Positions 4,079 to 32,355 of a stretch of 64,000 nt of DNA are shown one piece after another. Below the pieces are notes generated by a model. The model made no database searches. It saw only the letters and a program-made list of their open reading frames with translations, and had not been told where the DNA came from. Source of the stretch: Escherichia coli (GTDB taxonomy: Bacteria > Pseudomonadota > Gammaproteobacteria > Enterobacterales > Enterobacteriaceae). The stretch lies in NCBI RefSeq assembly GCF_003018255.1, contig NZ_CP027440.1, one strand, 5' to 3'. Both the position numbers and the translations under genes were made by a program. The number at the start of each line of letters is the position of its first letter. Within the stretch, counting starts at the first letter, position 1.

Positions 4079-5050
4079 ATGAATTTAGAAAAAATCAATG
4101 AGTTAACCGCGCAAGATATGGCGGGTGTTAATGCGGCAATCCTTGAGCAGCTTAATTCCGACGTCCAACTGATCAATCAGTTAGGCTATTACATCGTCAG
4201 CGGCGGCGGTAAACGTATTCGTCCGATGATTGCTGTACTGGCTGCACGAGCTGTTGGCTATGAGGGAAATGCGCATGTCACCATTGCTGCCCTGATCGAG
4301 TTTATCCACACGGCGACTCTGCTGCACGACGACGTTGTGGATGAATCAGATATGCGCAGGGGTAAAGCTACCGCCAACGCTGCATTTGGCAATGCCGCCA
4401 GCGTGCTGGTAGGCGATTTTATTTATACCCGCGCGTTCCAGATGATGACCAGCCTCGGCTCGCTCAAAGTGCTGGAAGTCATGTCAGAAGCCGTAAACGT
4501 CATCGCAGAAGGTGAAGTTCTGCAACTGATGAACGTTAACGATCCGGACATCACTGAAGAAAACTACATGCGCGTTATCTATAGCAAAACCGCGCGTCTG
4601 TTTGAGGCTGCCGCGCAGTGTTCCGGGATTCTGGCTGGCTGTACGCCGGAGGAGGAGAAAGGCCTGCAGGATTATGGGCGCTATCTCGGCACTGCTTTCC
4701 AGTTGATCGACGATTTACTCGATTACAATGCCGATGGCGAACAGTTAGGTAAAAACGTCGGCGACGATCTGAACGAAGGTAAACCGACGCTGCCGCTGCT
4801 GCATGCAATGCATCATGGCACACCAGAACAGGCACAGATGATTCGTACCGCCATCGAACAGGGTAACGGTCGCCATCTTCTGGAACCGGTTCTGGAAGCA
4901 ATGAACGCTTGTGGATCTCTTGAATGGACGCGTCAGCGTGCCGAGGAAGAAGCAGACAAAGCCATCGCAGCGTTACAGGTGCTCCCGGACACCCCGTGGC
5001 GAGAAGCACTCATCGGCCTCGCGCACATCGCTGTTCAACGCGATCGTTAA
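4079..5050 (+). CDS. ispB: Octaprenyl diphosphate synthase
   Basis: The 323 aa ORF carries the trans-prenyltransferase motifs DDVVDESDMRRG and FQLIDDLLD, and the sequence is recognised as IspB. Confidence 0.98.
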   Translation: MNLEKINELTAQDMAGVNAAILEQLNSDVQLINQLGYYIVSGGGKRIRPMIAVLAARAVGYEGNAHVTIAALIEFIHTATLLHDDVVDESDMRRGKATANAAFGNAASVLVGDFIYTRAFQMMTSLGSLKVLEVMSEAVNVIAEGEVLQLMNVNDPDITEENYMRVIYSKTARLFEAAAQCSGILAGCTPEEEKGLQDYGRYLGTAFQLIDDLLDYNADGEQLGKNVGDDLNEGKPTLPLLHAMHHGTPEQAQMIRTAIEQGNGRHLLEPVLEAMNACGSLEWTRQRAEEEADKAIAALQVLPDTPWREALIGLAHIAVQRDR

Positions 5051-5603: not shown

Positions 5604-6863
<1,260 letters not shown>

Positions 6864-7625: not shown

Positions 7626-10435
<2,810 letters not shown>

Positions 10436-30986: not shown

Positions 30987-31168
30987 GCCTGTCCCAGCGC
31001 CGCCTCCTCAGAAAAGAGTCGGCGCTGAAATTCTCCTTTCTTTCTGGAAAGCGCCTCGCATAATCTGAAGAAAACCAATGTAATACGCTCATCTGGATTG
31101 TTACCGGTAGATGCCCGGCGTATAGCTGATTCCATTATTCAACGCAGCGCCATATAAAGGGACAGATA

Positions 31169-32296
31169 ATGGAATCGCTCTCAGAGAGAACCTCAACAGG
31201 CTACCAGCAAATCCACGACGGTATTATTCACCTGGTCGATAGCGCCCGGACGGAAACGGTACGTAGCGTTAACGCGCTGATGACCGCGACATACTGGGAA
31301 ATTGGCCGACGAATTGTCGAATTTGAACAAGGTGGCGAGGCCAGGGCTGCGTATGGTGCGCAGCTAATCAAGCGACTATCAAAGGATTTAAGTCTAAGGT
31401 ATAAGCGTGGGTTCTCTGCAAAAAACTTACGCCAAATGAGGCTTTTTTACCTCTTTTTTCAACATGTTGAAATTCGCCAGACAGTGTCTGGCGAATTAAC
31501 ACCATTGGGAATTCCGCAGACACCATCTGCAGAATTCCCATCGGCAAAGATTTGGCAGACGCTGTCTGCCAAATCTTTCCCCCTGCCCTGGTCCACCTAC
31601 GTCCGTTTACTTTCCGTTAAAAACCCTGATGCCCGCAGCTTTTATGAAAAAGAGACGCTCCGCTGTGGTTGGTCTGTCCGCCAGCTAGAGCGGCAAATTA
31701 CGACCCAATTTTATGAGCGAACACTACTGTCACATGACAAATCAGCCATGCTGCAACAACACGCTCCTGCCGAGATGCATATTCTTCCGCAACAGGCGAT
31801 ACGCGATCCCTTTGTGCTCGAATTTCTGGAGTTGAAAGATGAATACTCAGAATCTGATTTTGAGGAGGCGCTGATCAACCACCTGATGGATTTCATGCTG
31901 GAACTTGGGGATGATTTTGCCTTTGTTGGTCGGCAGCGAAGGTTACGCATTGATGACAACTGGTTTCGGGTCGATCTGCTGTTTTTCCACCGCCGTTTAC
32001 GCTGCCTGCTAATCGTCGATCTAAAAGTGGGCAAATTCAGCTATAGCGATGCCGGACAGATGAATATGTATCTCAACTACGCCAAAGAGCACTGGACACT
32101 ACCGGATGAAAATCCGCCCATCGGTCTGGTTCTCTGTGCAGAGAAAGGAGCCGGCGAAGCGCATTATGCACTGGCTGGTTTGCCTAACACCGTTCTGGCG
32201 AGTGAATATAAGATGCAACTACCTGATGAAAAACGACTCGCGGATGAACTCGTTCGAACACAGGCGGTGTTAGAGGAAGGCTATAGACGCCGTTAA
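31169..32296 (+). CDS. yhcG: DUF1016-family PD-(D/E)xK nuclease-like protein YhcG
   Basis: The 375 aa ORF is recognised as YhcG. Its C-terminal half has a restriction-endonuclease-like core (EfleLKDE.. / FRVDLLFF / LLIVDLKVGK). Confidence 0.9.
   Translation: MESLSERTSTGYQQIHDGIIHLVDSARTETVRSVNALMTATYWEIGRRIVEFEQGGEARAAYGAQLIKRLSKDLSLRYKRGFSAKNLRQMRLFYLFFQHVEIRQTVSGELTPLGIPQTPSAEFPSAKIWQTLSAKSFPLPWSTYVRLLSVKNPDARSFYEKETLRCGWSVRQLERQITTQFYERTLLSHDKSAMLQQHAPAEMHILPQQAIRDPFVLEFLELKDEYSESDFEEALINHLMDFMLELGDDFAFVGRQRRLRIDDNWFRVDLLFFHRRLRCLLIVDLKVGKFSYSDAGQMNMYLNYAKEHWTLPDENPPIGLVLCAEKGAGEAHYALAGLPNTVLASEYKMQLPDEKRLADELVRTQAVLEEGYRRR
31471..31578. repeat. Three consecutive long palindromes inside yhcG
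   Basis: 31471-31497 is AATTCGCCAGACAgTGTCTGGCGAATT (13-bp perfect arms). 31506-31540 is TGGGAATTCcGCAGAcaccaTCTGCaGAATTCCCA (15-bp arms, 1 mismatch). 31546-31578 is AAAGATTTGGCAGACgctGTCTGCCAAATCTTT (15-bp perfect arms). All three share a GCAGAC/CCAGAC..GTCTG core. Confidence 0.9.
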
Positions 32297-32311
32297 TTTC
32301 AGCGGTTTCGA

Positions 32312-32336
32312 ATTCTCCAGACACTGTCTGGAGAAT
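32312..32336. repeat. Fourth copy of the yhcG palindrome family; also the likely terminator hairpin between convergent yhcG and nanQ
   Basis: ATTCTCCAGACAcTGTCTGGAGAAT has 12-bp perfect arms and lies 16 nt after the yhcG TAA. It is near-identical to the 31471-31497 copy. Confidence 0.85.
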
Positions 32337-32355
32337 CTTTAAAACGAACTAAGTT

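Follow-up and report, generated by a model that had tools for sequence, protein, structure and literature searches.

The yhcG gene in the 64-kb stretch of Escherichia coli DNA analysed here (the window) carries three tandem in-frame copies, 39 nt apart, of one ancient palindromic element of YhcG/DUF1016 genes. The conserved property of this element is the Watson-Crick complementarity of its two arms, which is equal on both strands, and not its sequence or the peptide that it encodes. Arm complementarity outranks the amino-acid sequence, and about nine codons take whatever residues preserve the pairing. The unit has multiplied in Escherichia, where two or three copies lie in the coding sequence and a further, non-coding one follows the stop codon. 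Our tentative reading is that the units are selected cis-acting DNA hairpins or cruciforms, possibly bound by YhcG itself. No description of a palindrome or hairpin element was found in the literature on DUF1016, yhcG, or COG4804, and this DNA stem-loop of YhcG/DUF1016 genes is apparently new to the literature.

Translation, domain matches, and PADLOC matches defined yhcG as an ORF of 375 aa (31169-32296, + strand). Its product is a member of the YhcG/DUF1016 protein family, since both domains were found: DUF1016_N at residues 19-184 (Pfam PF17761, E = 2.6e-43) and the YhcG_C PD-(D/E)xK nuclease domain at residues 208-360 (PF06250, E = 8e-57). It also matched the PADLOC candidate defence family PDC-S02 (E = 3e-136). 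A first AlphaFold model (shallow alignment, pLDDT 46) was set aside in favor of a second (pLDDT 64.8), in which the palindrome units fall in a low-confidence loop and units 1 and 2 are coil with pLDDT below 50. Fold searching with the nuclease domain gave weak results, the nearest being Cas4/MGME1/RecB-type nucleases (best E = 7e-4, TM ~0.2), and the top Foldseek PDB matches, all weak (E ≥ 7e-4), were Cas4-family, MGME1, and AdnAB nucleases and a tRNA-splicing endonuclease. The YhcG_C domain was likened to Holliday-junction resolvases by a 2005 fold-recognition study (PMC1189080); our Foldseek PDB search, made with a model of moderate quality (pLDDT 64.8), returned no specific match to these enzymes. 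A sequence search for solved-structure relatives of YhcG found none.

The three palindromes that an earlier note had reported are all present with the positions, arms, and loops given there. P1 (31471-31497) reads AATTCGCCAGACA-G-TGTCTGGCGAATT, with 13-bp perfect arms, and its center at 31484 is the first base of codon V106 within the peptide E-I-R-Q-T-V-S-G-E-L. P2 (31506-31540) reads TGGGAATTCCGCAGA-CACCA-TCTGCAGAATTCCCA; its 15-bp arms contain one C:A mismatch and enclose an effective 5-nt loop, with the register center at 31523. P3 (31546-31578) reads AAAGATTTGGCAGAC-GCT-GTCTGCCAAATCTTT, with 15-bp perfect arms around a 3-nt loop centered on 31562, and lengthens to 18-bp arms if one mismatch is allowed (31543-31581). 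The spacing of the three centers is exactly 39 nt, or 13 codons. The triplicated peptide is also as the earlier note described it (IRQTVSGEL, IPQTPSAEF, and IWQTLSAKS), while the placement of the units in a linker between the N-terminal domain and the PD-(D/E)xK core has to be revised, as Pfam puts them inside DUF1016_N. P3 occupies the position of the single ancestral unit, directly 5' of the F-P-L-P-W motif (residues 137-141; 31577-31591, + strand), a family-wide anchor directly 3' of the palindrome that reads L(S/P)W(S/G)H in other subfamilies. A fourth, non-coding copy had been overlooked: P4 (32312-32336; ATTCTCCAGACA-C-TGTCTGGAGAAT, 12-bp perfect arms) lies between yhcG and nanQ and begins 15 nt past the yhcG stop codon (32294-32296).

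The 64 kb contained four sites that combined arms of 13 bp or more, no more than one mismatch, and a loop no longer than 5 nt; three of them are P1-P3. The mean in 20 first-order Markov resamples was 0.4 per 64 kb. A chance origin of the three palindromes is excluded. Each unit, folded as single-stranded DNA of either strand, was predicted to form a 12-15-bp stem with a 3-nt loop (-10 to -18.5 kcal/mol, z -5.8 to -8.2).

Across the family, the element spans 25-29 bp as an inverted repeat whose arms measure 11-14 bp and flank a purine-(C/G)-pyrimidine (R-S-Y) triplet. It is centered on a first codon position just 5' of the conserved L(S/P)W(S/G)H motif in the N-terminal domain. All 81 YhcG-type genes compared (55-97% identity; hosts from the Proteobacteria, Acidobacteria, Cyanobacteria, Verrucomicrobia, and Planctomycetes, plus one archaeal MAG) contained a unit in frame in which nine or more of the 12 positions formed Watson-Crick pairs, and 39 of them paired at all 12. 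A control stretch of equal size in the same 81 genes gave only 5-9 pairs. Strong palindromes in these ORFs were centered on codon position 1 in 113 of 128 cases. More distant metagenomic DUF1016 genes (37-62% identity) had at least 10 of 12 pairs in 50 of 72 cases, with controls never above 8; in the other 22, about 30% of the distant homologues, the palindrome was weakened to fewer than 10 pairs. Among eight plasmid-borne homologues (30-40% identity), five had clear palindromes in the corresponding location, built on different cores, two had weaker ones (10/12 pairs), and one (L089) had none. A detection criterion that included wobble pairs was dropped because it was too permissive (2.3% background). 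Core sequences vary by subfamily, but arm complementarity persists. Arm length is uniform, non-coding copies included, and AT-rich rare codons (ATT, ACA, TCT, GGA, and GAA) are kept even in hosts of 64-68% GC.

Analysis of 109 units showed that pairing itself is constrained. Paired cells made up 90.7% of the alignment, compared with 73.2% after shuffling and 24-43% when the partner was slid by one to three columns. Double-sided changes numbered 234 against 80 ± 9 in shuffles, 11 of the 12 pairs covaried, and the covariation score was 0.454 versus 0.136. Such compensatory covariation, as expected of a conserved fold-back nucleic-acid element, points to a hairpin or cruciform. The same peptides under synonymous-codon shuffling gave 5.14 ± 0.14 of 11 pairs, against 9.9 observed. 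Residues were found to swap in linked sets, R with G-E, V with A-Q, and W with A-K, and ETVS (GAGAC/GTCTC) was exchanged for DAVR (GACGC/GCGTC); such linked swaps occur because the arms stay complementary. Peptides as different as YALRS, ETVSL, DAVRL, ATVSH, and HKLCG all kept the pairing. These results strongly support the proposal of the earlier note that the palindromes stem from selection or propagation acting on the nucleic acid and not from the peptide repeat. Homologues keep the arms complementary while the peptide changes, the opposite of a peptide retained over drifting arms, which the earlier note had named as evidence against its proposal.

The mismatches that do occur indicate which nucleic acid is constrained. 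G:T mismatches numbered 54 and A:C mismatches 69; in units picked by position alone, the counts were 15 G:T, 18 A:C, and 74 others. Synonymous sites that permitted either a Watson-Crick or a G:T-forming base carried the Watson-Crick base in 202 cases, the G:T-forming base in 13, and another in 5. Loop triplets came in reverse-complement pairs of similar frequency (ACT 30/AGT 20, GCT 10/AGC 7, and ACC 12/GGT 7). The lack of a G:T excess together with the reverse-complement loop pairs therefore indicates that it is DNA, in both strands, that is constrained, rather than a sense-RNA hairpin. At the innermost position (k=1), the bases showed no Watson-Crick correlation (Fisher p = 0.64), yet 102 of 108 units had a purine there on the 5' side and a pyrimidine on the 3' side. 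We read this base restriction, together with the uniform arm length, as signs of a folded structure.

In Escherichia, the array is a hotspot of deletions, truncations, and mosaic exchange. Alleles with a 78-nt deletion, found in O157:H7 genomes, lack P2 and P3; hybrid P1/P3 alleles are present in E. coli, one yhcG allele is truncated exactly 3' of the right arm of P3, and the K-12-type P1 has an arm mismatch (CAC opposite GCG). The extra copies and their perfection are thus dispensable, at least in the short term, because alleles without P2 and P3 or with mismatches are common. Comparison of alleles also revealed a hyperdivergent mosaic patch (31395-31575), with ~30% divergence and indels against ~98% identity in the remaining gene; on its 3' side, the patch stops where P3 ends. 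P4 has perfect arms in three alleles, with compensated forms in other E. coli strains (CTG..CAG, CGC..GCG) that show transversions on both arms within the species. Strains without yhcG retain P4 as their one unit, identical to P1, between convergent genes, and alleles with and without yhcG diverge at the left edge of P4. The 78-nt indel equals the difference between amplicons of 394 and 472 nt, which we take to be those of the original LSPA-6 assay, and the deletion is probably the O157 LSPA-6 lineage marker. LSPA-6 records length variation in a yhcG amplicon, which measures 394 nt in O157:H7 lineage I (PMC8733641). In the LSPA-6 typing papers examined, the locus is an anonymous indel, and the palindromic units and their family-wide conservation are not described.

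If the units are selected cis-acting hairpins or cruciforms, selection would preserve complementarity since the DNA must fold back on itself, as a hairpin when either strand is single-stranded or as a cruciform under negative supercoiling. The folded structure would act in cis on its carrier gene. That the hairpin is a ligand of YhcG, whether as operator, anchor, or decoy, is a speculative further step to which we give a low probability; it is suggested because the encoded nuclease is the sole partner that travels with the element through all hosts. Placement of the site inside the ORF would ensure joint transfer of site and protein, like parS inside parB. We further speculate, with much reserve, that a strand-symmetric hairpin or cruciform in the ORF of a mobile defence nuclease may be that nuclease's own ligand and a new kind of cis-element. 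It could be an autoinhibitory anchor or operator, and its folding could hinge on supercoiling or on single-stranded DNA, in which case phage attack or DNA entry might alter the structure and so release or induce the nuclease. On this view, the encoded peptide would be a passive read-out of the folded DNA. However, inverted repeats of ~27 bp extrude poorly as cruciforms. The weakened palindromes in ~30% of the distant homologues, the absence of a palindrome in L089, and the E. coli alleles with P2 and P3 missing or with mismatched arms also count against a selected structure.

The best-surviving alternative, which we consider somewhat unlikely, is that the unit is a neutral, self-perpetuating quasi-palindrome in a tolerant protein loop. 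Intra-strand template switching would recopy one arm from the other without any function, so that mutations would be reverted or 'compensated' in the absence of selection, and slipped or unequal recombination would yield tandem copies and deletions. Strict Watson-Crick symmetry is predicted equally by such function-free, arm-to-arm templated repair, and in E. coli reporters, template switching at quasi-palindromes can be more frequent than base substitution at a given site. Consistent with this alternative, pairing tolerates no wobble and the strands are symmetric, the dispensable extra units and the non-coding P4 remain perfect, P4 alleles of one species differ by transversions on both arms, units survive in decayed DUF1016 remnants, rearrangement end-points coincide with units, and units 1 and 2 lie in poorly predicted coil. 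However, a single register is retained in essentially every member of a very old and widely transferred family, whereas loss would be irreversible and should therefore be common under neutrality. Neutral recopying also fits poorly with the uniform arm length and the conserved purine-(C/G)-pyrimidine loop class, as well as with the AT-rich rare codons kept in high-GC hosts. Furthermore, the common A:C and G:T combinations at k=1 show that the loop position is not templated.

An mRNA hairpin in the yhcG transcript, which might slow ribosomes before the nuclease domain, serve as an RNase III or other processing site, or form a protein-binding operator that limits a toxic nuclease, is improbable. 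In-ORF autoregulatory hairpins are well known, RNA readily forms stems of 12-15 bp, and the folding check proposed by the earlier note came out positive: the 150-nt segment folded as RNA at -65.9 kcal/mol, compared with -31.3 ± 3.5 for shuffles (z = -9.8). The covariation nevertheless disfavors the RNA structure that the same note had listed as a candidate. The tolerance of G:U but not of A:C that marks a sense-strand RNA hairpin was not seen in the units, where two independent samples showed no excess of G:T over A:C or over other mismatches, and both loop and pairing were symmetric under reverse complementation. Moreover, a perfect non-coding copy stands between convergent genes at the yhcG empty site, and the units lack a U-tract and an Rfam match.

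The rearrangements in E. coli bear on a third alternative, equally improbable in our judgment, in which the units are crossover points, either att-like sites or hotspots of illegitimate recombination, that move yhcG or swap its parts. This could account for the wide horizontal spread of yhcG. It agrees with the presence/absence boundary at P4 and the P1-identical unit left at the empty site, with the allele truncated right after P3, the 78-nt deletions, the hybrid alleles, and the mosaic patch ending at P3, and with two findings elsewhere: an inverted DUF1016 patch fragment inside hsdS, and two ORFs flanked by direct repeats of a remnant. DUF1016 genes are also enriched beside invertible loci (PMC9881135). 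However, in 3160 gene pairs, the identity of the N-terminal half closely tracks that of the C-terminal half (r = 0.96), which argues against general module shuffling. Among the homologue loci examined, the flanking unit was found nowhere outside Escherichia, an odd-length center with variable arms fits no known core site of a tyrosine or serine recombinase, and the adjacency of yhcG to gltD, shared by several genera of enterobacteria, points toward vertical descent. The last alternative, that the DNA symmetry is a coincidental by-product of a selected I-x-Q-T-x-S repeat, draws on the recurrence of that peptide and on the L015 locus, where some units keep the peptide although pairing is weakened, but it is refuted by the codon shuffles (5.1 of 11 pairs for random synonymous codons), the covariation, the radical turnover of the peptide with pairing kept, and the existence of a non-coding copy.

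If confirmed, a selected DNA hairpin or cruciform would mean that DNA secondary structure, rather than protein or mRNA, dictates a coding segment across a very widespread gene family. It would also show that cis-acting DNA structures can hide in ORFs, whose covariation is usually put down to protein co-evolution or RNA structure, and would offer an experimental handle on YhcG/DUF1016, among the commonest uncharacterised nuclease families of defence islands and Type I restriction-modification operons. The length polymorphism of yhcG, inferred to be the one used in O157:H7 lineage typing, would gain a structural basis. Even if the neutral alternative is true, the element would be a striking case of palindrome self-maintenance by arm-to-arm templating over a very long evolution.

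Known classes of element were compared with the units. BLAST searches with the segment and with a 31-mer against 5,426 E. coli genomes hit the yhcG locus only. This single locus, together with the codon register fixed family-wide, leaves unsupported the idea of a dispersed or absorbed mobile palindromic element. An Rfam 15 search with E up to 10 gave only chance-level matches (E ≥ 0.35, scores far below gathering). A terminator scan was empty at P1-P4 and a promoter scan found nothing at the units, whose tails read AACACCA, CCCCCTG, and CTTTAAAA. In recombinase core sites, the arms bound by the recombinase are expected to be conserved and to flank a crossover region of 6-8 bp (tyrosine) or 2 bp (serine), and attC sites also have extrahelical bases; we rejected an integron attC or recombinase core site, as the units have a center of 1 or 3 nt and bulge-free perfect arms that differ between units of one gene. 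A -1 frameshift at CUUUUUU upstream of P1 was dismissed for want of a canonical in-frame heptamer and of conservation in homologues, and a restriction-like GACNNNGTC site is absent from other subfamilies. A scan of viral contigs for ATTNNNCAGACNNNGTCTGNNNAAT yielded 41 matches, with at least 2/3 unconstrained pairs complementary in 39. About 24 of the 41 were in yhcG-like genes and four in DUF1016 remnants; the others, ~11 stand-alone matches that are intergenic or in foreign genes, are beside portal, capsid, terminase, serine integrase, RhuM, and AbiEii genes, and we did not count them as mobility because ~20 matches are expected by chance (a rough figure, from about a million generic 12-bp palindromes). 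An extra DUF1016 patch fragment near family genes occurred in one case only, L015.

Like REP/BIME elements and terminators, the units are short hairpin-capable palindromes, and P4 stands between convergent genes, a typical place for such elements. However, REPs are high-copy, intergenic, and marked by a conserved 5' GTAG, and terminators have a GC-rich stem and a U-tract; the YhcG units fit neither, with one or two sites in each E. coli genome, always at yhcG, and P1-P3 coding. Quasi-palindrome template-switch hotspots, in which one arm templates exact Watson-Crick 'corrections' in the other, are known from E. coli thyA and lacZ reporters, that is, from single genes, unlike the gene-family-wide conservation of the YhcG unit. 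RPEs and other in-frame palindromic insertions demonstrate that palindromic DNA is tolerated within coding genes. However, RPEs are mobile elements of 100-150 bp in many unrelated genes, whereas the YhcG unit has a single locus in E. coli and an identical codon register in all family members, and we rejected an RPE-like origin.

PARCELs are amphipathic tandem repeats of 25 residues (75 nt) with dyad-symmetric DNA (PMC2996958). They share with the YhcG unit intragenic tandem repetition, dyad-symmetric coding DNA, variable copy number, and horizontal spread. However, PARCEL arrays occur in membrane or surface proteins of unknown function, whereas the 27-nt YhcG palindrome has a fixed site in one enzyme family, and we did not assign it to the PARCELs, as the unit spans ~9 codons with a 12-13-codon period and was ancestrally single-copy inside an enzyme domain. 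A further parallel is parS in parB/spo0J. Like the YhcG palindrome, it is a palindromic site within the coding sequence of a protein that acts on DNA, shows conservation across phyla, and is inherited together with that protein. However, the parS sequence is conserved and its binding by ParB demonstrated, whereas the YhcG unit varies in sequence and conserves complementarity alone, which implies fold-back rather than duplex recognition.

The yhcG gene of the Escherichia coli window (31169-32296, plus strand, 375 aa) lies in the gene order gltB-gltD-yhcG-nanQ(yhcH)-nanK and encodes a DUF1016_N domain (residues 19-184) followed by a YhcG_C PD-(D/E)xK nuclease domain (residues 208-360). Its product matched the PADLOC candidate defence family PDC-S02 (E = 3e-136), and NCBIfam contained no model for YhcG. 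The three palindromes that the earlier note described in this gene were confirmed with their arms: those of P1 (31471-31497) and P3 (31546-31578) are perfect over 13 and 15 bp, respectively, and the 15-bp arms of P2 (31506-31540) contain a single C:A mismatch. The three register centres (31484, 31523, and 31562) are spaced 39 nt, i.e., 13 codons, apart. The 64-kb window contains four palindromes of this quality, three of which are P1-P3, and Markov resamples gave 0.4 per 64 kb. The palindromes matched no Rfam family and were not terminator-like. A dispersed repeat family was also rejected, since the P1-P3 sequence was confined to the yhcG locus and found nowhere else in 5,426 complete E. coli genomes.

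The units had been placed in a linker between the two domains, which proved wrong: all of them lie inside DUF1016_N, in a low-confidence coil loop (residues 103-125, pLDDT < 50) of a second AlphaFold model (87 sequences, pLDDT 64.8). This model predicts a helical N-terminal domain and an alpha/beta nuclease core, with units 1-2 as coil and unit 3 as a short helix ahead of the PLPW motif. No solved relative of YhcG was found, and a Foldseek search of the PDB returned only weak matches (Cas4-family, MGME1, and AdnAB nucleases and a tRNA-splicing endonuclease), so the Holliday-junction-resolvase-like fold proposed previously (PMC1189080) could not be confirmed. The W of the PLPW motif (codon W141, 31589-31591) is replaced by R in another allele, FPLPRSTY (protein cluster P0002, 4,131 member sequences), which may be functionally impaired; this W is otherwise invariant. 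The replacement is apparently also carried by L006, a locus that we take to be K-12-like.

The element was found throughout the YhcG/DUF1016 family. We sampled 80 YhcG-type genes, 55-97% identical to the query, from one-genome-per-species contigs of Enterobacteriaceae, Betaproteobacteria, Acidobacteria, Cyanobacteria, Verrucomicrobia, Planctomycetes, and one Methanoperedenaceae metagenome-assembled genome (MAG). Together with the window gene, 81 out of 81 had an in-frame palindrome within 240 nt 5' of the PLPW motif. The best unit per gene had 12 Watson-Crick pairs of 12 in 39 genes, 11 in 24, 10 in 16, and 9 in two, and an equal-size control stretch of the same genes reached 5-9 pairs at best. 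Distant DUF1016 genes have a palindrome with a very different core at the same place, 12 nt 5' of the L in LSWSH or LPWGH. Plasmid genes with 30-40% identity contain CAATTGTCGTGAC-GCT-GTCACGACAATTG, AATTATGCCACAG-T-CTGTGGCACAATT, and AATTCGGGAGACA-G-TGTCTCTCGAATT, with weaker versions in two further genes, and those between hsdM and hsdS in Type I restriction-modification (RM) operons contain CAATTCGAGACGC-AGT-GCGTCTCGAATT. Metagenomic DUF1016 genes (37-62% identity) had at least 10 of 12 pairs in 50 of 72 cases (controls never exceeded 8), with cores including GCTACGC, GTCACGC, GGTGCGAC, GTGAGAC, CTCGACGC, and CTCCACAA. The element is ancestral to the YhcG/DUF1016 family and was amplified in Escherichia.

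YhcG-type proteins share 55-68% identity between very distant phyla, one of them being in the Methanoperedenaceae MAG, which indicates extensive horizontal transfer. All subfamily-2 genes examined (L085, L134, L135) lie between hsdM and hsdS in Type I RM operons, and one plasmid-borne copy (L088) overlaps a tyrosine recombinase gene.

The constraint acts on nucleotides rather than on the peptide. Across 109 aligned units, 90.7% of cells pair, versus 73.2% with partners shuffled and 24-43% with partners slid; double-sided changes numbered 234, versus 80 ± 9 in shuffles, and 11 of 12 pairs covary. With random synonymous codons and unchanged peptides, 5.14 ± 0.14 pairs of 11 would form versus 9.9 observed, bearing out the suggestion that the perfect arms exceed what the peptide requires. 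Strong palindromes in YhcG-type ORFs centre on the first codon position in 113 of 128 cases. Because of this centring, codon position 1 pairs with 1, 2 with 3, and 3 with 2, which couples unit residue 2 to residues 7 and 8: R occurs with G-E, V with A-Q, W with A-K, F with E-K, and P with A-E. Concerted exchange of entire residue sets, ETVS (GAGAC/GTCTC) for DAVR or DALR (GACGC/GCGTC), occurs in the RM-embedded subfamily between proteins that elsewhere exceed 70% identity. Metagenomic units encode peptides such as YALRS, HALRD, QTVSG, ETVSL, ATVSH, DALRR, and HKLCG, and their arms remain complementary. Orthologues thus show the reverse of a kept peptide with decayed arms, and a pure peptide repeat is refuted. 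The codons ATT, ACA, TCT, GGA, and GAA are still used in units of hosts with 64-68% GC. Nucleotide constraint overrides protein sequence in the units, and the data show a strand-symmetric inverted repeat of DNA that is strongly maintained at the nucleotide level.

The loop triplets have the form purine-(C/G)-pyrimidine, and reverse-complement partners are similarly frequent (ACT 30/AGT 20, GCT 10/AGC 7, ACC 12/GGT 7, GGC 6/GCC 4). In an independent set of 40 units selected purely by position, ACT and AGT occurred 18 and 14 times. The innermost position shows no Watson-Crick correlation (Fisher p = 0.64) and is almost always a purine on the 5' side and a pyrimidine on the 3' side, the Thr codon ending in A or G in 104 of 108 units. 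This pattern agrees with a genuine loop of 3 nt and a closing C:G pair, whichever strand is considered.

The unit is single-copy in most genera; in Escherichia and Pseudocitrobacter its number ranges from one to three or more, with YhcG lengths of 349, 358, 362, 370, 375, 382, and 391 aa; the window allele is the three-unit form. A second allele class of E. coli, type B, is ~98% identical to the window allele across yhcG except for a patch (31395-31575) with ~30% divergence and indels. Its P1, AATTGTGCAGACA-C-TGTCTGCACAATT, differs from the window P1 by three compensated pairs. The patch spans RGFS..NL..FY and the units up to FPLPW, and its type B version resembles Pseudocitrobacter alleles, suggesting short-patch interspecies exchange.

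Other E. coli alleles have an in-frame 78-nt deletion (31498-31575) whose extent is precisely that of P2 plus P3; P1/P3 hybrids also occur. The 78-nt indel is polymorphic among O157:H7 genomes and probably underlies the yhcG length alleles of LSPA-6 typing, in which the alternative allele is reportedly 472 nt, i.e., 78 nt different. The yhcG amplicon length is one of six LSPA-6 lineage markers and is 394 nt in lineage I (PMC8733641; PMC3514354). A further 2-bp deletion allele in the literature (392 nt) would frameshift yhcG. In a common truncated allele (strain H15, L001, 2634-3105), yhcG is cut exactly 3' of the P3 right arm (junction at window 31574/31575), and ~470 nt of unrelated DNA, with a 101-aa ORF annotated 'transposase' (WP_000639208.1) and then a hairpin, replaces the nuclease domain and P4. 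Coverage of the 170-nt query was below 80% in about a third of the matching genomes (1,355/4,053), and some yhcG alleles contain IS1 or IS3 insertions.

A fourth, non-coding unit, P4 (32312-32336; ATTCTCCAGACA-C-TGTCTGGAGAAT), starts 15 nt past the yhcG stop codon and has 12-bp perfect arms. In its place, other E. coli strains have the compensated variant ATTCTGCAGACA-G-TGTCTGCAGAAT. Translated in the frame of yhcG, P4 gives FQRFRILQTLSGESL, similar to the FQ.IEILQTLSGESL stretch of type B alleles. Genomes matching the nanQ-proximal end alone belong to the 80-90% identity band (610 genomes in all), from which the empty site was read in one fetched genome, strain AR_451 (L132). Here yhcG is missing, and gltD is followed by 13 nt, GAATTCGCCAGACAGTGTCTGGCGAATT, and nanQ; the 67-nt spacer (L132 3488-3554) corresponds to window ~30987-32350. 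Its perfect unit is P4 by position and identical to P1 by sequence, so the boundary of yhcG presence and absence is the left edge of a unit. The non-coding palindrome thus exists in E. coli as three coexisting compensated alleles. The E. coli chromosome is variable between gltD and nanQ, since yhcG directly follows gltD in the window strain (30987-31168) and is preceded by YhcE and yhcF genes in others, such as L133.

We tentatively prefer selection for a cis-acting DNA structure. The element would form a fold-back hairpin or cruciform, because the variable arm middle differs between units of one gene yet stays complementary, which dimeric-protein recognition of duplex DNA would not require. 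As single-stranded DNA, the P1-P3 segment folds well on both strands (12-15-bp stems, 3-nt loops, z -5.8 to -8.2). More speculatively, the ligand might be YhcG itself, the sole factor accompanying the element in all hosts, a proposal that we consider improbable. The main rival, a neutral, self-templating quasi-palindrome, is rather unlikely: it accounts for strictly symmetric Watson-Crick pairing, for dispensable and non-coding copies being perfect, and for instability at the locus, but fits less well with retention in nearly all members, arms of uniform length, and a loop class that is conserved yet not templated.

As RNA, the P1-P3 segment folds far more stably than shuffles (z = -9.8), in line with the mRNA structure considered in the earlier note. 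G:U pairs are tolerated in RNA stems. Among unit mismatches, G:T (54) was not commoner than A:C (69) or others (87), and the independent 40 units gave 333 Watson-Crick, 15 G:T, 18 A:C, and 74 other combinations. At synonymous third positions where both the Watson-Crick and the G:T-forming base were free, Watson-Crick was used 202 times and wobble 13 times. This lack of G:U tolerance and the reverse-complement-symmetric loops conflict with an mRNA hairpin, which is very unlikely; the substitution pattern indicates that the constraint is on DNA, not on sense RNA.

Units also occur in fragments and remnants. In a Magnetococcus MAG (L015 3055-3360), a ~200-nt fragment of a different DUF1016 gene, in inverse orientation and with two units (GFSVDNLEQMRLFY..WISGTLSRKS..EKSEAVSRIF..FPLSWSHYVHLTL), interrupts an hsdS-like gene directly downstream of an intact yhcG homologue. 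In viral contig L115, a decayed DUF1016 remnant forms direct repeats (4700-4900 and 6020-6220) at a spacing of 1,322 nt, with two small ORFs between them; the remnant retains two units, now mutually out of frame, and ..RNFYEIEAFF*, and is conserved in other viral contigs (L105, L109). In viral contig L108, a large serine recombinase gene is directly preceded by two adjacent perfect units (9938-9985), ATTCATCAGACACTGTCTGATGAAT then AATTGGGCAGACGTTGTCTGCCCAATT, and NikA/MobC mobilisation genes are close by. The locus had no detected DUF1016 gene, and the pair may represent an att region or have arisen by chance. A recombination or att-like site, consistent with the unit edge at the empty site and the inverted patch fragment inside hsdS, is very unlikely given the tight co-evolution of N- and C-terminal halves (r = 0.96) and the lack of a flanking unit outside Escherichia.

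Full-text searches found no description of the element in the literature on yhcG, DUF1016, COG4804, or intragenic palindromes generally. The nearest described systems are parS inside parB, PARCELs, Rickettsia palindromic elements, and quasi-palindrome template-switch hotspots, each of which differs from the YhcG unit in a defining respect.
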